Shown here one piece after another: positions 49,058 through 57,498 of a stretch of DNA of 64,000 nt. The notes under the pieces were generated by a model. It worked only from the letters and a program-made list of their open reading frames with translations. It did not search any database and was not told where the DNA came from. The translations under genes were made by a program, and so were the position numbers. The stretch's first letter is position 1. Every line of letters starts with the position of its first letter. The stretch comes from Lachnospiraceae bacterium (lineage in GTDB: Bacteria > Bacillota > Clostridia > Lachnospirales > Lachnospiraceae): positions 15,790-79,789 of the forward strand of contig JAILOV010000063.1 in assembly GCA_024690605.1 (NCBI GenBank), given 5' to 3'.

Positions 49058-49630
49058 CTACTCGTTTTCATAACCCAGAAGGAACGCCTTCTGGTTGATC
49101 TCTACGGTTTTGGGCGGCACCTTTTTCGCGATCGTCGAGAGCCACGCCTCTTTGGGAAAATCCATGTGTCTGGCGGCAAGCCCCAGCACGACATTGTTGA
49201 ACACGCGCGGATTGCCGAGCTTTTTGGCCTCTCCCATGGCATCCACCGCGTAGATCCTGTGCTTTTCGGCAAGTTTTTCCAGGATCCCTTCCGGGTAGAC
49301 TGCCGCGCCGGACACCACCGGCATCGGATCGATCCTCGCGTCATTGACGACGATCACACCGTCCTCCTTGAGGAAATGTGCATACCGGAGAGCCTCCAGG
49401 CGCTCAAAGGCGATCAGCACATCCGCCTGCCCCTCCTCAACGATCGGCTCCGCCACCCTGTCTCCGTAACGGACAAAGGTCACGACCGATCCGCCGCGCT
49501 GTGCCATGCCGTGCACCTCGGACAGTTTGACATCAAAGCCCGCCTCCGTCATGATCCCGCCGAGGATGCGGCTGGTCAGCAGGGTTCCCTGACCGCCGAC
49601 ACCGACGATCATGATATTCTTCGTCTCCAT
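49058..49630 (-). CDS. iorB: Indolepyruvate:ferredoxin oxidoreductase beta subunit
   Basis: IVGVGGQGTLL, SEVHGMAQRGGSV. Confidence 0.92.
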   Translation of the reverse strand: METKNIMIVGVGGQGTLLTSRILGGIMTEAGFDVKLSEVHGMAQRGGSVVTFVRYGDRVAEPIVEEGQADVLIAFERLEALRYAHFLKEDGVIVVNDARIDPMPVVSGAAVYPEGILEKLAEKHRIYAVDAMGEAKKLGNPRVFNNVVLGLAARHMDFPKEAWLSTIAKKVPPKTVEINQKAFLLGYENE

Positions 49631-51378
49631 CACTTTGCCACCTCATATTTCTCGAGCGCGCCGAATTTGCACTGCTGCTCGCACAGTCCGCACCCGTTAC
49701 ACATCGTCTCGTCCACATGCACCGTCCCGTCGGCATTCTTTGTGATCGCAGGGCATCCCGGCTGCAGACACATCCCGCACTTCTTGCATTTCTCGGGGAT
49801 CTCCCGCACCCGGTACGGGAAGGTCTGTCCCTTGAGCAGCGCGCACGGAGCACAGACAATGATCACCGAAAGCGCATCCCTCGCGGTCTCCTCTCTGACG
49901 ACACGCTCCAGTTCCGCGGTATCGAAAGCACTGACCTCCACGACATGCTCGATGTTCATGGCCTTGCAGATCTTGTAGATCGAGATCGCCGGAACTTCTT
50001 CCCCTTTCAGGGTCCTGCCGGTCGCCGCGTGATCCTGGTGCCCGGTCATGCCGGTCGTCGAGTTGTCGAGGATCAGCACGGTTCCCGTGCCGCGGTTGTA
50101 GGACATGTTCTCCAGCGAATTGATGCCCGTGTGCATAAAGGTCGAATCGCCGATGACCGCCACCCAGTTTTTGATATAGGCACTGCCGCGCGCCTTCTCC
50201 ATGCCATGCAGCGTCGAGATCGAGGATCCCATGCAGACGGTCGTGTCGATGACGGAGAGCGGCGCCACCGCGCCGAGCGTGTAGCAGCCGATATCGCCCG
50301 CCGCGTGGAGTTTCAGTTTCTTCAATACGGAGAATGTCGCGCGGTGCGGGCAGCCGGGGCACAGGATCGGCGGTCGCGCGGGAACATCCGCCGCAGGGTC
50401 GATCGCGGGCTTTTTGTTCAGCACCCGCTCCCGCAGCATGTTCGCACTGTACTCTCCCTGCACGGTAAACACATCCTTGCCGTGGCAGTTGATCCCCCAT
50501 GCGCGCACCTGGCGCTCGATCACCGGCTCCAGTTCCTCAAAGATGTAGAGTGTGTCCACCCGGGACGCAAAATCCCTGATCAGTTCCTCGGGCAGCGGAT
50601 TGACCAGACCGAGTTTTAACACGCAGGCATCCGGACACGCCTCTTTGACATAGGTGTACTCGATGCCCTGCGTGATGAAGCCGATGCTCGTGTCGCTTCC
50701 CATCTCAACGCGGTTGAGCGCGCATTTGCTGCCGTAGGCGGACAGATCGTTCATCCGCTTCTCGACGACCACGTGGCGGCCCTTCGCCATCCCCGGCATC
50801 ATGACGCGCTTTCTGATGTCCTTTTCATATTCCCTGACCGGCGGTTCGACGCGGTCCTCGAGTGTCACCATCCCCTGGGAATGCGCGAGTCTCGTCGTCG
50901 TGCGCACGATGACCGGCGTGTCAAACTCCTCGGACAGCGCGAAGGCCGCCTTGACAAAGTCCTTGGCCTCCTGGGAATCCGACGGTTCGATCACCGGCAC
51001 GAGCGCCGCCAGCGCCACCGCCCGGGTGTCCTGTTCATTCTGCGAGCTGTAAAGCCCCGGATCATCCGCGGCGATCATCACCAGCCCCCCGTCCGCGCCG
51101 ATATAGGAAACGGAATAGAGCGGATCCGCCGCGACATTGACACCCACGTGTTTCATGCTCGCCATGGCGCGGACACCCGCGAACGACGCCCCGATTGCCA
51201 CCTCCATCGCCACCTTTTCATTCGGTGCCCACTCCGCGTAGATCTCGGGATACTTCACGATATTCTCGCTGATCTCCGTGGAAGGTGTCCCCGGATAAGC
51301 GGCACTCACCTTGACCCCTGCCTCCCAGGCACCGCGGGCGATCGCCTCGTTGCCCAGCATCAACTGTTTCTCAGCCAT
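49630..51378 (-). CDS. iorA: Indolepyruvate:ferredoxin oxidoreductase alpha subunit
   Basis: LGNEAIARG, YPGTPSTE, RPPILCPGCPHR, GDIGCY, IGDSTF, C-terminal ferredoxin motifs. Confidence 0.94.
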   Translation of the reverse strand: MAEKQLMLGNEAIARGAWEAGVKVSAAYPGTPSTEISENIVKYPEIYAEWAPNEKVAMEVAIGASFAGVRAMASMKHVGVNVAADPLYSVSYIGADGGLVMIAADDPGLYSSQNEQDTRAVALAALVPVIEPSDSQEAKDFVKAAFALSEEFDTPVIVRTTTRLAHSQGMVTLEDRVEPPVREYEKDIRKRVMMPGMAKGRHVVVEKRMNDLSAYGSKCALNRVEMGSDTSIGFITQGIEYTYVKEACPDACVLKLGLVNPLPEELIRDFASRVDTLYIFEELEPVIERQVRAWGINCHGKDVFTVQGEYSANMLRERVLNKKPAIDPAADVPARPPILCPGCPHRATFSVLKKLKLHAAGDIGCYTLGAVAPLSVIDTTVCMGSSISTLHGMEKARGSAYIKNWVAVIGDSTFMHTGINSLENMSYNRGTGTVLILDNSTTGMTGHQDHAATGRTLKGEEVPAISIYKICKAMNIEHVVEVSAFDTAELERVVREETARDALSVIIVCAPCALLKGQTFPYRVREIPEKCKKCGMCLQPGCPAITKNADGTVHVDETMCNGCGLCEQQCKFGALEKYEVAK

Positions 51379-51422: not shown

Positions 51423-52325
51423 TCAGCACGCCTTTTTCCGGCTCTTTCCCGCTGTCAGTTCGGTGTAGAATTCATAAGCCTCTTTGTCGGTATAACCCTC
51501 GTGCACCACCTTGCGCACGGCCTGTGCCATCTCCACGGGATGTGTCGACTGGAAGATGTTCCTGCCCATGTCGACGCCGGCGGCGCCGCCCTGAATGACG
51601 CGCCAGGCGAGCGTCAGTGCCTCCTTCTCCGGCAGTTTCTTGCCGCCCGCAATGACAAGCGGCACCGGACACGCGGCGACAACCTCTTCAAAATTGTCGC
51701 AGTAATAGGTCTTGACAATCTGGCATCCCATCTCGGCCAGGATCCTCGTGGCCAGTTTGAAGAAGCGGTCCGTCCGCTCCATTTCCTTGCCGACGGCCAC
51801 GACGCCGAGGGTCGGGATACTGTACCGGATCCCGGCGTTGATCACCTGAGAGAGATTCTCCAGGCTCGAGAGCTGTCCGTCCGCGCCGATAAAGGTCTGC
51901 ACCGCCATGCAGTCGGCATTCATGCGGATCGCGTCCTCAATGTTCACCGCGACGGTCTCATGGGAGAGATCGTCATTGAGCATGGAGGAACCGGAGGTCA
52001 CCCGGAGCGCCACCCCGCAGGAGGTGCTCGCCGGGACGCAGGTCCTGAGCGCTCCTCTGGTCGCCATCAGCACGTCAACATAGGGCATCAGCGGCGGGAT
52101 CACCAGATCCAGACGCTCCAGCCCCGAAGTGGAGCCCATGAAATAGCCGTGATCAAAAGCGAACATGACGGTCTTCCCGGTCTTCGGATCGAAGATGCGG
52201 GACAGATGCTTCTTCATGCCCCAGTCCAGACCGTTCGCACCCTTCACATGGAAATCCCCCATGTTGGCAAACGCTTCCTTTACATGATAGTCCTTGGCAA
52301 CCTTGAGACCGTCCCTGTCAGCCAT
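51423..52325 (-). CDS. lsrF: 3-hydroxy-5-phosphonooxypentane-2,4-dione thiolase LsrF (class I aldolase fold)
   Basis: LDWGMKKHLSRIFDPKTGKTVMFAFDHGYFMG, IVKTYY (catalytic Lys), IAGGKK, GVDMGRNIFQ, closely matching enteric LsrF. Confidence 0.9.
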   Translation of the reverse strand: MADRDGLKVAKDYHVKEAFANMGDFHVKGANGLDWGMKKHLSRIFDPKTGKTVMFAFDHGYFMGSTSGLERLDLVIPPLMPYVDVLMATRGALRTCVPASTSCGVALRVTSGSSMLNDDLSHETVAVNIEDAIRMNADCMAVQTFIGADGQLSSLENLSQVINAGIRYSIPTLGVVAVGKEMERTDRFFKLATRILAEMGCQIVKTYYCDNFEEVVAACPVPLVIAGGKKLPEKEALTLAWRVIQGGAAGVDMGRNIFQSTHPVEMAQAVRKVVHEGYTDKEAYEFYTELTAGKSRKKAC

Positions 52326-52396
52326 CGTCCTCCTCCTTTGCAATGTTGCTTTTTACGCACAACGCGGGTATCATTATAACACACAGGAGGTGCGTT

Positions 52397-53974
52397 TTGA
52401 ATAAGGATTATTTACTTGCCATCGACGCGGGCACCGGAAGCGTCCGCGCCGTTCTTTTCGACCGGAAAGGCACGCAGATCGGCGTCGCCCAGAGAGAATG
52501 GGAGCATCTGTCCGATCCCCGTTTCCCCGGCAGCATGAATTTTGACTGGACCACCAACTGGCCGCTCGCCTGCACCTGCATCCGTCAGGTCGTGCGGGAA
52601 GCGGGCATCTCCCCGGAGGCGATCGCCGCCGTGTCCACCACCTGCATGCGGGAGGGGATTCTGCTCTATGACCGGGACGGCAGGGAGATCTGGGGCTGTG
52701 CCAACGTGGATTCCCGCAGCACTGACGAGGTGGCACAGCTGGTCAGGACGCAGCCCGATCTGGAAAAGAAGCTCTACGCGATCTCCGGCGAGGCCTTTGC
52801 GCTGGGTGCGCTCCCCAGACTTCTCTGGGTGAAGAACAAGATGCCGGAGATCTATGAAAAGACCGCCCGCATCGGCATGTTCAATGACTGGCTGATCTAC
52901 CGGCTCACGGGCATCCTGTCCGTCGAACCGAGCAATGGCTCCACGACGGGGCTTTTCGATCTGAAAAAGCGCACCTGGGATCCCGCTGTCGCGGAAAGCG
53001 TCGGCCTGCGGACGGACATCTTCCCGCCCGTCAGCGAATGCGGCCGGAAAGCCGCGGAGATCAACGAACAGGGCGCAGCGGACACCGGGCTCGCGGTCGG
53101 AACGCCGGTCATCGTCGGCGGCGGAGATTCCCAGCTGGGCTGCGTCGGCGTGGGGGTCGTGAAACCGAATCAGGCGGCGATCTTCGGCGGCAGCTTCTGG
53201 CAGTATGAATACAACACGGACAGCGGCGATACGGATCCCGACTGCCGCGTCCGTGTCAACTGTCATGCGGTCCCGGGTGTCTGGCAATATGAAGCTCTGG
53301 CCTTCAATCCCGGTCTCGTCATGCGATGGTTCCGTGACGGCTTCTGCCAGCATGAAGCCGCGATCGCCGCACAGACCGGTGAGGACATCTACGATCTGAT
53401 GAACCGCGAAGCGGAAAAGATCCCCGCCGGCTCGAACGGCATGATGTGCACCTTTTCCGACGTGATGAACTTCACCTGCTGGAAGCACGCGTCACCGACC
53501 TTCACCAATTTCAGCATCGACCCGAAGCTGCACAACCGCTACACCTTTTACCGGGCCATCCTGGAAAACGCGGCGCTGGTCACCAGAGGCCACGTGGATC
53601 TCGTGCGGGAAGCGACCGGCAACATGCCGTCCGAAGTGGTCTTCGCCGGCGGTGCCTCCAAGAGCCCGCTGTGGTGTCAGATCCTCGCGGATGTACTGGG
53701 ACTTCCCGTCAGAGTGCCCGTTGTCAAAGAGGCGACCGCTCTCGGCGCGGCGATCATCGCGGGCGTCGGTGCGGGGATCTACCGGGACGCGCAGGACGGC
53801 GCGGAACAGTGCGTCCGCTGGGAGAAGACCTGCACGCCGGATCCCGCCGCTCATGCCGTCTACGAAGAGATGTATCCTGTCTGGCGCGAAATCTACGCCG
53901 CGCAGCTTGCGCTCTGCGACAGAGGACTCACACGGAACATGTGGATCGCACCGGGGCTGGCCCCGCTTTCATGA
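52397..53974 (+). CDS. lsrK: Autoinducer-2 (DPD) kinase LsrK, FGGY family
   Basis: TTG start after GGAGG; YLLAIDAGTGSVRAV...EWEH...PGSMNFD, STTCMREG, WGCANVDSR, EPSNGSTTG; divergent from lsrF. Confidence 0.85.
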   Translation: MNKDYLLAIDAGTGSVRAVLFDRKGTQIGVAQREWEHLSDPRFPGSMNFDWTTNWPLACTCIRQVVREAGISPEAIAAVSTTCMREGILLYDRDGREIWGCANVDSRSTDEVAQLVRTQPDLEKKLYAISGEAFALGALPRLLWVKNKMPEIYEKTARIGMFNDWLIYRLTGILSVEPSNGSTTGLFDLKKRTWDPAVAESVGLRTDIFPPVSECGRKAAEINEQGAADTGLAVGTPVIVGGGDSQLGCVGVGVVKPNQAAIFGGSFWQYEYNTDSGDTDPDCRVRVNCHAVPGVWQYEALAFNPGLVMRWFRDGFCQHEAAIAAQTGEDIYDLMNREAEKIPAGSNGMMCTFSDVMNFTCWKHASPTFTNFSIDPKLHNRYTFYRAILENAALVTRGHVDLVREATGNMPSEVVFAGGASKSPLWCQILADVLGLPVRVPVVKEATALGAAIIAGVGAGIYRDAQDGAEQCVRWEKTCTPDPAAHAVYEEMYPVWREIYAAQLALCDRGLTRNMWIAPGLAPLS

Positions 53975-53986
53975 AAGGAGACTGCC

Positions 53987-54331
53987 ATGTTTGTCGTACA
54001 TGAAGATGATTTTTCCTATCGATTCGGGGACAGCGGTCCGAAATATCTGATGAAGGGGCCGCGCATGAATTTTGCGCTCGTGCAGTTCCAGCCCGGTCAG
54101 GACTTTCCGGCACATTATCACAATATCATGGAGGAGAATTTCTACATCCTGAGCGGTGAGATCGATATCTACGTGGACGGTAAGGTCAACCACCTGAAGG
54201 AAGGTCAGATGATCCACATCGAGCCCGGTGAAGTGCATTACTGCGTCAACAACTCCGACCGGCCGATCAAAATGGTGTCAACGCTGGCGCCTTATCAGGA
54301 ATCGGACAAGGTCGAGGTGCCGAATCCGTAA
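53987..54331 (+). CDS. Cupin-domain protein (114 aa) with intact metal site
   Basis: FPAHYHNIMEENFYILSG and GQMIHIEPGEVHYCVN; RBS AAGGAG directly after the lsrK stop. Confidence 0.85.
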   Translation: MFVVHEDDFSYRFGDSGPKYLMKGPRMNFALVQFQPGQDFPAHYHNIMEENFYILSGEIDIYVDGKVNHLKEGQMIHIEPGEVHYCVNNSDRPIKMVSTLAPYQESDKVEVPNP

Positions 54332-55469: not shown

Positions 55470-55541
55470 AGGTGCGGGACGGATTTGAACCGACGCATCA
55501 GGGAGTTGCAGTCCCACGCCTTACCACTTGGCTACCGCACC
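55470..55541 (-). tRNA. tRNA-Cys(GCA), CCA not encoded
   Basis: ggtgcgg acceptor stem, D-loop agccaagtggtaaggc, anticodon loop ctGCAac, T-loop ggttcaaatcc, U discriminator. Confidence 0.95.
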
Positions 55542-55715: not shown

Positions 55716-56549
55716 ATGCGTTTAGGAACTTCATCACCGCTGCAGCACGATTCTCCCGAACAATGGGCGGCGCGGCACAAAGCGCTCGGGTGTGCGGCGG
55801 TCGTGTTCCCGGTACAGAGCGATGAACCGGAGGAGAGGATCCTTGCCTACAAAGCGGCCGCGGACCGTGCCGGACTCACTGTCGCGGAGGTCGGGATCTG
55901 GAGAAACGCACTGTCGCGGGATCCCGATGAGAGAAAACGGAACATGGATTACTGTGTGGAGCAGCTGCGACTGGCGGACTTCCTCGGTGCCGGATGCTGT
56001 GTCAACGTGGCAGGTGCCTTCGGCCCGGTGTGGGACGGTCCGTACAGAGAAAACTTCACGGCGCAGGCCAGACAGGAGACCGTCCGTATGGTGCGGGAGA
56101 TCATCGACCGGGCAGATGTGAAGCACACCTTTTTCACGCTGGAACCGATGCCGTGGATGATCCCCACGGGACCGGAGGACTATGCCCGTCTTCTCGACGA
56201 AGTGGATCGCGACCGGTTTGCCGTGCATATGGATATCATCAACATGACGAGCTCCGTCGACCGCTATTTTCACGCTGAGGAACTGATCGACGCCTGCGCG
56301 GAGCTTCTGGGAAGCAGGATCAAAAGCTGTCATATCAAGGATGTGCATCTGAACGGTGCCTACACCGCGCAGCTGGTGGAATGCGCCCCGGGTTGCGGTG
56401 AATTCCCGATCCGGCACTATGTAGAAAAAATGCACGCCGTCGATCCGGATATGCCGATGATCCTGGAGCATCTGCGGACGGACGAAGAATATCTGAAGTA
56501 TATGGCTTATCTTAAGGAGGTTCTGCATGGACTATACAAGACAGTCTGA
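55716..56549 (+). CDS. Sugar phosphate isomerase/epimerase, xylose-isomerase-like TIM barrel
   Basis: LEPM, VHMDIIN, CHIKD, ILEH metal-ligand pattern; RBS AGGAGG. Confidence 0.8.
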   Translation: MRLGTSSPLQHDSPEQWAARHKALGCAAVVFPVQSDEPEERILAYKAAADRAGLTVAEVGIWRNALSRDPDERKRNMDYCVEQLRLADFLGAGCCVNVAGAFGPVWDGPYRENFTAQARQETVRMVREIIDRADVKHTFFTLEPMPWMIPTGPEDYARLLDEVDRDRFAVHMDIINMTSSVDRYFHAEELIDACAELLGSRIKSCHIKDVHLNGAYTAQLVECAPGCGEFPIRHYVEKMHAVDPDMPMILEHLRTDEEYLKYMAYLKEVLHGLYKTV

Positions 56550-57456
56550 CGCCAATGTCATCACGCAGCGGTACATGGATTCCATCCTGTTCGAGGCGAG
56601 ATATATCGACTCCGTCAGGGCGGAGCTGACTACGGATTTTCTGGGTGAGACCTTTGACCTGCCGGTCATGATGCCGGCGTTTTCCCATCTGGGCAATTAC
56701 GCGGGGAGAGAGCGGAACGGCCTGGAGGAATATGCACTCGCGGCCGCGGAATGCGGCGTTCTTAATTTCTGCGGCATGATGGAAAATGACCAGTTTGAGA
56801 AGATCGTGAAGACCGGTGCAAAGACGGTGCGGATCGTCAAGCCCTACGCGGATCAGGGCAAGGTGCGCGATCAGATGCAGTTCGCGGAAGCCGCCGGTGC
56901 CTTTGCCGTCGGGATGGACATTGATCACATCTTCGGGGAGAAAGGTTATGACGTGGTCGTCGGGGAGGATATGGCGGCGCAGACGTCGGAGATGCTGCGT
57001 TCCTATGTGGAGCTCACGAAACTGCCCTTTGTGGTCAAGGGTGTCCTGAGTGTCTCCGATGCCGTGAAATGCGCAGATATCGGCGCAAAAGCGATCATCG
57101 TCAGTCATCATCACGGGCGGCTTCCCTATGCCGTTCCGCCGATGATGGTCCTGCCGGAGATCAAAAAAGCTCTGGCCGGAAAAGAGGTCGGGATCATTGT
57201 CGACTGCGGGATCGCGACCGGCGCGGATGTGTTCAAGGCGATCGCTCTGGGAGCCGATGCGGCCGCGGTCGGACGCGCCATGCTGCCCTCACTGGAGCAG
57301 GAGGGAACGCCGGGGGTATCGGCTTTTATCCGGGGGATCGGCGACGAGCTCCGCTTCATCATGGGATCAACGGGATACCGCCGCGTTTCCGATATCGATG
57401 CTTCGGTCCTGCATTTCCCGAACGACGAAATGCCGATCCGAAAAGGCCTGTTGTAA
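56527..57456 (+). CDS. FMN-dependent alpha-hydroxy-acid dehydrogenase family protein (short form)
   Basis: LPFVVKGVLS, IVSHHHGR, IVDCGIATGADVFKAIALGADAAAVGR. Confidence 0.78.
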   Translation: MDYTRQSDANVITQRYMDSILFEARYIDSVRAELTTDFLGETFDLPVMMPAFSHLGNYAGRERNGLEEYALAAAECGVLNFCGMMENDQFEKIVKTGAKTVRIVKPYADQGKVRDQMQFAEAAGAFAVGMDIDHIFGEKGYDVVVGEDMAAQTSEMLRSYVELTKLPFVVKGVLSVSDAVKCADIGAKAIIVSHHHGRLPYAVPPMMVLPEIKKALAGKEVGIIVDCGIATGADVFKAIALGADAAAVGRAMLPSLEQEGTPGVSAFIRGIGDELRFIMGSTGYRRVSDIDASVLHFPNDEMPIRKGLL

Positions 57457-57498
57457 AAACCGGACATTTCCTCTATGATGGATTCCGGAGGTAACAGC

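Follow-up and report, generated by a model that had tools for sequence, protein, structure and literature searches.

The locus described here raises the question of why a bacterium should keep enzymes that process autoinducer-2 (AI-2) in a genome in which none of the genes that import AI-2 or respond to it can be found. It lies in a 64,000-nucleotide stretch (hereafter the window) of contig JAILOV010000063.1 from a rumen-type Lachnospiraceae bacterium and comprises three genes, lsrF, lsrK and a small cupin gene, the first of which is transcribed divergently from the other two. We put at about 0.5 the probability that these genes form a selected cytoplasmic route from 4,5-dihydroxy-2,3-pentanedione (DPD), the linear form of AI-2, to dihydroxyacetone phosphate (DHAP) and acetyl-CoA, probably fed by the LuxS of the cell itself and serving for salvage or detoxification.

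The two enzymes can be assigned with confidence to the LsrF and LsrK families. The lsrF gene (51423-52325, minus strand) encodes a 3-hydroxy-5-phosphonooxypentane-2,4-dione (P-HPD) thiolase of 300 amino acids, starts with an ATG at 52325 behind the ribosome-binding site GGAGGAGG, and its product scores 415.5 bits against the NCBIfam equivalog NF006081 (cut-off 297). This protein is 54% identical to E. coli LsrF over 288 amino acids, with both the Schiff-base lysine (K203 in E. coli, within QI[IV]KTYY) and the aspartate of AFDHG retained, and it shares 88-90% identity with the LsrF of sister species. On the plus strand, lsrK (52397-53974) encodes an autoinducer-2 (DPD) kinase of the FGGY family with 525 amino acids, which is 52% identical to E. 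coli LsrK over 521 amino acids and scores 756.5 bits against the equivalog NF008187 (cut-off 528), spanning positions 3-521 of the 521 in the model. Its start is a TTG located six bases past AGGAGG; a longer reading frame from 52343 was discarded, as it finds no backing from the family model. The cupin gene (53987-54331, plus strand; 114 amino acids, Cupin_2 69 bits) encodes a small metal-binding protein, has its own AAGGAG and follows lsrK after a gap of 12 bp, in an operon with it. Gene calls, coordinates and equivalog scores agree with the first-pass annotation of the window in placing the lsrF and lsrK homologs divergently over exactly 71 bp.

That annotation had found no ABC (ATP-binding cassette) transporter, repressor or LsrG in the window and had interpreted it as a stripped-down Lsr module, an interpretation that a complete lsr operon elsewhere in the genome would have reduced to one half of a split locus. 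The assembly that contains the window (2.76 Mb, 79 contigs, 95% complete) was searched by tblastn with E. coli LsrA, LsrB, LsrC, LsrD, LsrR and LsrG, as well as with protein queries from L004, the closest of the full clostridial loci. The E. coli queries detected no LsrB, LsrD, LsrR or LsrG anywhere in the genome, even at E<=10, the clostridial queries likewise found none of these four proteins genome-wide, and the contig bearing the window yielded no match to an ABC ATPase. Further searches of the whole genome, made independently, gave a concordant result. Because LsrB, LsrD, LsrR and LsrG were not found in the whole genome with either set of queries, the possibility of a split locus is ruled out, and no complete operon lies elsewhere. 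What had been noted around the trio holds both for the contig and for the whole assembly, and the description as a stripped-down module stands, with the enzymes above their equivalog cut-offs and with neither the importer nor the LsrR repressor found in the genome. The sole LsrA-like match (35% identity) is located on contig C62 and belongs to an unrelated sugar ABC system. We considered this system as a hidden Lsr transporter and rejected it, since it is a sensor-linked CUT2 sugar system with no LsrB match; its two binding proteins (Peripla_BP_4) are nearest to YtfQ, below the YtfQ cut-off.

The genome search that had been suggested for lsrB, lsrR and luxS thus returned neither of the former two genes, and did return luxS, on contig C13 (NF002604, 216 bits against a cut-off of 158). 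The same contig carries pfs/mtnN (NF004079, 250 bits against a cut-off of 169) and, since both genes are present, the organism is predicted to make DPD by means of Pfs and LuxS.

The likely origin of the arrangement emerges from comparison with the best 80 loci fetched among 291 relatives of the window LsrK, identified with one genome per species. These loci come from Lachnospiraceae, Oscillospiraceae, Clostridiaceae, Christensenellaceae, Coriobacteriia and others, their LsrK is 68-82% identical to that of the window and the majority include a full lsr transporter. About 55 of the 80 present the order lsrF<lsrB<lsrD<lsrC<lsrA <> lsrR>lsrK>cupin, and most others are cut by contig ends. When lsrB-lsrA and lsrR are subtracted from this standard order, what remains is exactly the lsrF<>lsrK>cupin of the window, which suggests that the window locus is a Gram-positive-type lsr locus that has lost its transporter and repressor. 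The cupin belongs to the standard locus as well: it lies directly after lsrK in all 77 loci with a readable downstream side (111-118 amino acids, 57-90% identity), and LsrG was detected in none of these 77 (best E 0.59). Whole-genome searches of 17 LsrK-positive Clostridia revealed no LsrG at E<=0.001 in 16 of them and, in the remaining one, a single weak ABM match 1.1 Mb away from its own lsr locus. The lack of LsrG is nothing peculiar to the trio, and on this point the first-pass annotation has to be corrected. Clostridia, Coriobacteriia, Bacillus (in the order lsrBDCA <> lsrR-lsrK-cupin-lsrF) and a Lacticaseibacillus plasmid all have, as their standard arrangement, lsrK paired with the cupin gene and no LsrG, and the lack of LsrG is hence normal for this type of locus.

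The loss of importer and repressor is a recurrent event. When each genus of the family is represented by a single genome (n=251), LsrK is present in eight genomes, seven of which have LsrB about 5-7 kb from lsrK, whereas the window genome has none. Seven of the 61 species sampled within the genus carry LsrK; LsrB and LsrR were not found in any of these seven and LsrF is kept in all of them, with one copy truncated at the end of a contig. A metagenome-assembled genome (MAG) of the Defluviitaleaceae (L052) likewise has the order lsrF<>lsrK>cupin and no LsrB or LsrR. The cupin is seen in every importer-less genome (the seven species of the genus and L052), and the frames of all three genes are intact in the eight. 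As regards the distribution of the three-gene cassette, which the first-pass annotation had left to be established, it recurs in the seven species and in the Defluviitaleaceae MAG. In a broader sample LsrK appeared in only 2 of 399 Clostridia genomes, too few for a class-wide estimate of its frequency.

The LsrK tree, in which the window LsrK sits nested among copies from full loci, requires at least three independent reductions, corresponding to L052, to species G316 and to a six-species clade that includes the window. The full locus L004 appears nested in this clade, but a tree uniting the six species scores better and is not rejected (p-AU 0.60), and a single loss within the clade is compatible with the data. 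Comparison of the window genes with those of importer-less relatives gives dN/dS values of 0.09-0.17 for lsrK, 0.05-0.09 for lsrF and 0.04-0.11 for the cupin gene, all with dS saturated, at about 1 or more. These values point to purifying selection maintaining the enzyme-only branch.

Other variants of the locus were observed among the relatives. A 74-kb conjugative plasmid of Lacticaseibacillus paracasei (NZ_CP064315.1) carries the whole Gram-positive-type lsr locus, in which rbsD follows the cupin gene and which adjoins IS5 and IS30 transposases. The plasmid is a plausible vehicle for the spread of the locus. Two further loci illustrate other paths of decay: in L026 (1414-1719), lsrA and lsrK are only about 300 bp apart with no lsrR, and in L020 (6112-9078) no lsrC or lsrA is detectable between lsrD and lsrR and lsrF is shortened. 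Finally, the LsrK proteins of L054, L056, L058 and L066 are nearly identical (branch lengths 0-0.06) in bins from a single study labeled as Prevotella sp. CAG:279, Bacteroidales, Acutalibacteraceae and Anaerovoracaceae, which reflects either very recent transfer or mis-binning.

The gene context of the trio in sister species bears on the source of its substrate. Of the seven species, five have the trio no more than 10 kb from luxS-pfs, and in three of these the two adjoin directly. In species G005 all the genes share a strand, in the order lsrK>cupin>rubrerythrin>lsrF>luxS>pfs, and are separated by 90-150 bp. In G006 a gene for a DctP-type binding protein precedes lsrK and, beyond a contig break, the order continues as cupin>lsrF><rubrerythrin luxS>pfs, while G001 shows lsrF><rubrerythrin luxS>pfs with lsrK>cupin 7 kb off, beside GGDEF and HD-GYP genes. 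In G003 and G004 the trio genes and luxS-pfs are 4-10 kb apart. Among the 80 fetched loci, luxS or pfs occurs at up to 10 kb from lsrK in three (L003, L005 and L007), all of them from importer-less congeners, and in none of the full lsr loci. The presence of luxS in the genome, and of luxS-pfs beside the trio in sister species, points to DPD of the cell's own making at least as strongly as to external AI-2.

The genome under study has the same block on contig C13 (73601-80394), which reads GGDEF>HD-GYP-type response regulator>orphan DctP lipoprotein>(96 bp)<rubrerythrin-like gene, then luxS>pfs. Sister species have the lsrK-cupin-lsrF trio at the junction of the DctP gene and rubrerythrin, as an insertion that the C13 block lacks; the 96-bp gap between the two genes on C13 contains a terminator-like hairpin only, and no remnants of the trio were found in it. 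Judging by adjacency, GGDEF>HD-GYP>DctP>lsrK>cupin>lsrF>luxS-pfs may have been an ancestral block linking AI-2 turnover to cyclic di-GMP signaling, in which the DctP-family lipoprotein could be a candidate for an alternative AI-2 receptor.

In the scheme that we favor, LsrK would phosphorylate cytoplasmic DPD at C5, as expected from orthology, and the cupin, by virtue of its context, would isomerize the resulting P-DPD to P-HPD, which is the task of LsrG in E. coli. LsrF, given its orthology and its catalytic lysine, would then transfer the acetyl group onto CoA, yielding DHAP and acetyl-CoA. The trio would in this way close the activated methyl cycle, with S-adenosylhomocysteine (SAH) being converted into adenine, homocysteine, DHAP and acetyl-CoA, and the cell would benefit from the recovery of carbon, the removal of a reactive dicarbonyl and a limited release of AI-2. 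Since no dedicated importer and no LsrR were found and both Pfs and LuxS are present, DPD is most likely the substrate and the cell itself the source of it. A stronger version of this scheme, which we advance tentatively and consider less likely than not, is that in this group of rumen Lachnospiraceae Pfs, LuxS, LsrK, the cupin and LsrF make up a closed cytoplasmic pathway from the ribose of SAH to DHAP and acetyl-CoA with little or no release of AI-2, DPD being an intermediate and not a signal, and the cupin representing a second, unrelated family of P-DPD isomerases.

Expression of the trio would be driven by promoters in the 71-bp divergent control region between lsrF and lsrK (52326-52396), without AI-2-dependent derepression. 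A minus-strand promoter-like site directed towards lsrF, TTCAAA-17-TG-TATAAT (52401 to 52373), matches at 10 of 12 positions, and a weaker plus-strand candidate towards lsrK, TTGCTT (52346-52351)-17-TATCAT (52369-52374), was read by eye. No deletion scar could be recognized in the spacer: it has no recognizable similarity to either of the corresponding spacers in the full locus L004 (lsrB-lsrF and lsrR-lsrK), and it is equally unrelated to those of the two remaining reduced loci with divergent genes, which measure about 165 and 190 bp. When the window and five related loci were scanned against Rfam, only tRNAs were identified, with no riboswitch or other RNA element.

The cupin deserves separate consideration, being an old companion of lsrK that has remained unnamed. 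The window protein has the two-motif Cupin_2 metal site (H-x-H...E in motif 1 and H in motif 2), and an alignment of 63 sequences reveals that the metal-site residues H43, H45, E49, E50 and H84 are invariant, as are R12, K19, Y20, R26, H77, N88 and K108, a set that would suit a phosphorylated ligand. Its AlphaFold2 model is a beta-barrel (pLDDT 94), and the nearest solved folds are small monocupins (TM-scores to small cupins 0.75-0.83), including KdgF and two Thermococcus phosphomannose isomerases (25-28% identity, TM 0.75-0.84). At least 1,337 homologs (E<=1e-10), including a Clostridium saccharobutylicum copy with 77% identity, are all named only "cupin domain-containing protein", and our literature search found no paper dealing with LsrG and a cupin, or with lsrK, lsrF and a cupin, together. 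In Sinorhizobium meliloti pSymB (CP140937.1), the slot after lsrK is occupied by an ABM (LsrG-type) gene. By analogy, the cupin would most likely be the P-DPD isomerase, for which it is the only candidate in Gram-positive-type Lsr systems. A cupin with 46% identity also lies right after lsrK in the canonical lsr locus of a Salmonella enterica sequence (NZ_CP051374.1; L098:10571-10921), which has lsrG and lsrE too, whereas E. coli K-12 lacks this cupin. The Salmonella protein is again annotated only as "cupin domain-containing protein", and the sequence that encodes it carries tpiA and pfkA and looks like chromosomal DNA filed as a plasmid.

The route fed by the cell's own LuxS must be weighed against other explanations. 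One, proposed in the first-pass annotation, is that external AI-2 enters through a non-Lsr route, in which case the organism would be a sink for AI-2, either quenching quorum signals or gaining a minor nutrient. AI-2 is abundant in rumen and gut habitats, and the genome retains possible entry points: a DctP-type protein (C13:75839-76861), which as an orphan might work with the membrane unit of one of two full TRAP (tripartite ATP-independent periplasmic) systems, and the CUT2 ABC system on C62 with its two Peripla_BP_4 proteins. In G006 the DctP-type gene abuts lsrK with a stop/start overlap, and in G003 a DctP gene is adjacent. Nonetheless, the DctP gene is missing from the G001 and G005 loci, no DctQ or DctM gene adjoins it, and no transporter gene is conserved beside the trio in the eight importer-less genomes. 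Moreover, the usual ligands of TRAP binding proteins are carboxylates, a class that does not include DPD, while the C62 binding proteins resemble YtfQ most closely, below its cut-off, and do not match LsrB. There is precedent in E. coli for AI-2 uptake without Lsr by a route dependent on the phosphotransferase system (PTS) (PMC3386761), but no clear PTS enzyme I was found in the genome, the best match to PtsI (25% identity, 117 bits) being probably another enzyme that utilizes phosphoenolpyruvate. We regard uptake of external AI-2, for which the orphan DctP-type lipoprotein is the best lead, as less likely than internal supply but as the foremost of the alternatives.

It is also conceivable that the trio has become an Lsr-derived pathway acting on another small keto-sugar or dicarbonyl. 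FGGY kinases and DhnA/LsrF-type enzymes switch substrate easily, and the AI-2-specific LsrB and LsrR, the parts that tie the system to AI-2, have been lost. Against this, LsrK and LsrF are 68-90% identical to copies in full, LsrB-bearing loci and both exceed their equivalog cut-offs, LsrK is nested among full-locus copies in the tree, and the linkage observed is to luxS-pfs and not to another sugar pathway, all of which makes a change of substrate improbable. A last explanation, in which a decaying lsr locus has left the trio behind as a non-functional remnant still awaiting loss, could appeal to published decay, mostly of transporter genes, in the lsr loci of E. coli and of the B. cereus group (PMC2561040, PMC3420918, PMC3595036). 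Here, though, three intact reading frames persist in eight genomes, ribosome-binding sites and a strong promoter-like site are in place, and the same three genes have been kept through at least three independent reductions and several rearrangements; this recurrent retention, together with dN/dS values of 0.04-0.17 (with saturated dS), renders a neutral remnant very unlikely.

Several observations nevertheless weigh against a route fed by the cell's own LuxS, or against parts of it. The Km reported for LsrK with DPD is high. In the window genome luxS-pfs are on another contig (C13), away from the trio and, as the linkage in the sister species is confined to one clade, it may stem from one historical event. 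In two sister species, moreover, an orphan DctP-type lipoprotein gene lies directly upstream of lsrK, as would fit an operon fed by import. With regard to the cupin, Salmonella possesses it alongside LsrG, and E. coli works with LsrG and no cupin; given this coexistence in Salmonella, the cupin may have a role other than the isomerization of P-DPD, for instance on forms of DPD before the kinase acts.

Comparison with known systems helps to define what is particular to the window locus. The LsrK and LsrF of enterobacterial Lsr systems (lsrACDBFG divergent from lsrRK) are orthologous to those of the window, kinase and thiolase genes are divergent in both, and the predicted chemistry is the same (DPD to P-DPD to P-HPD to DHAP and acetyl-CoA). 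What the window genome lacks is the LsrACDB importer, LsrR with its operator logic, and an LsrG of the ABM fold, and its system therefore cannot be an AI-2-induced uptake circuit; the cupin after lsrK is a further difference from E. coli K-12, although one shared with Salmonella. With the Gram-positive-type locus the window has in common the lsrK-cupin pair and lsrF, at 65-90% identity. It departs from it in that lsrF joins lsrK over 71 bp, in that transporter and repressor were not found genome-wide and in that the trio of the sister species is joined to luxS-pfs instead of a transporter. The LsrB of a locus of this type is said, in the work of Torcato et al. 2019, to bind AI-2 in Clostridium saccharobutylicum. 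The S. meliloti pSymB locus has lsrR-lsrK followed by an isomerase gene, in a slot equivalent to that after lsrK in the window, but the protein in that slot is of the ABM type, the importer is kept, and a 416-amino-acid class II aldolase after lsrB takes the place of lsrF. To our knowledge, S. meliloti lacks luxS. It appears that lineages differ in how they combine the enzymes of Lsr processing.

Gene loss is also a documented source of natural variation in the lsr system of E. coli, Shigella, Yersinia and the B. cereus group, whose partial or decayed loci mainly lose or disrupt transporter genes or whole loci (PMC3595036, PMC3420918, PMC2561040), and carriage of lsrF and lsrG was found to predict that of all other lsr genes (PMC3420918). 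In the present case the opposite subset, that of the enzymes only, survives and is conserved across species. Partial lsr loci being known, the moderate interest of this case lies in an enzyme-only, cross-species-conserved subset joined to luxS-pfs, which we did not find in the literature searched. AI-2 has long been debated as either a genuine signal between species or, for the most part, a by-product of the activated methyl cycle, and genomes that keep the enzymes for degrading AI-2 and drop its uptake and sensing, with sister species that join those enzymes to luxS-pfs, provide a direct test case. If the proposed route is correct, such organisms would be luxS-positive and yet poor releasers of AI-2 and, in gut and rumen metagenomes, the presence of luxS would not imply AI-2 output, nor that of lsrK or lsrF AI-2 uptake. 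The analysis also draws attention to the cupin, a partner of lsrK that is very widespread and unstudied, and that is equally unexplained beside the lsrK of Salmonella.

The immediate surroundings of the trio are of a different nature. Downstream of lsrF, 44 bp away and on the same strand, lies iorA (49630-51378, minus strand; Pfam TPP_enzyme_C, POR_N and Fer4), encoding the alpha subunit of an indolepyruvate:ferredoxin oxidoreductase, and past it are iorB, a phenylacetate-CoA ligase gene and an ACT-domain gene. The 44-bp spacer contains a ribosome-binding site, and a scan of it revealed no terminator-like site. Given the short gap and the lack of such a site, lsrF is probably co-transcribed with iorA and may head an aromatic 2-oxoacid:ferredoxin oxidoreductase operon comprising iorAB, the phenylacetate-CoA ligase gene and the ACT-domain gene. 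On the other side, the cupin gene converges with an M14 carboxypeptidase gene, a neighbor that was sought in the 61 congeners and is poorly conserved, with no shared synteny at the site of the window.

Five same-strand genes at 55716-60164 (plus strand) encode a xylose-isomerase-like TIM barrel protein, an FMN-dependent alpha-hydroxy-acid dehydrogenase and an MBL-fold hydrolase, and additionally a Mem_trans transporter of the auxin-efflux-carrier family and a 2-dehydropantoate-reductase-like enzyme; this cluster is beside the trio in none of the related loci. Elsewhere in the genome there are two HPr-like genes, of which that at C30:21165-21395 adjoins the only other FGGY kinase match (C30:18832-20148). 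Just upstream of the M14 carboxypeptidase gene the window carries a tRNA-Cys (GCA) gene (55470-55541, minus strand), and tRNA genes are likewise located a few kb from the lsr genes in L003, L007 and L086.

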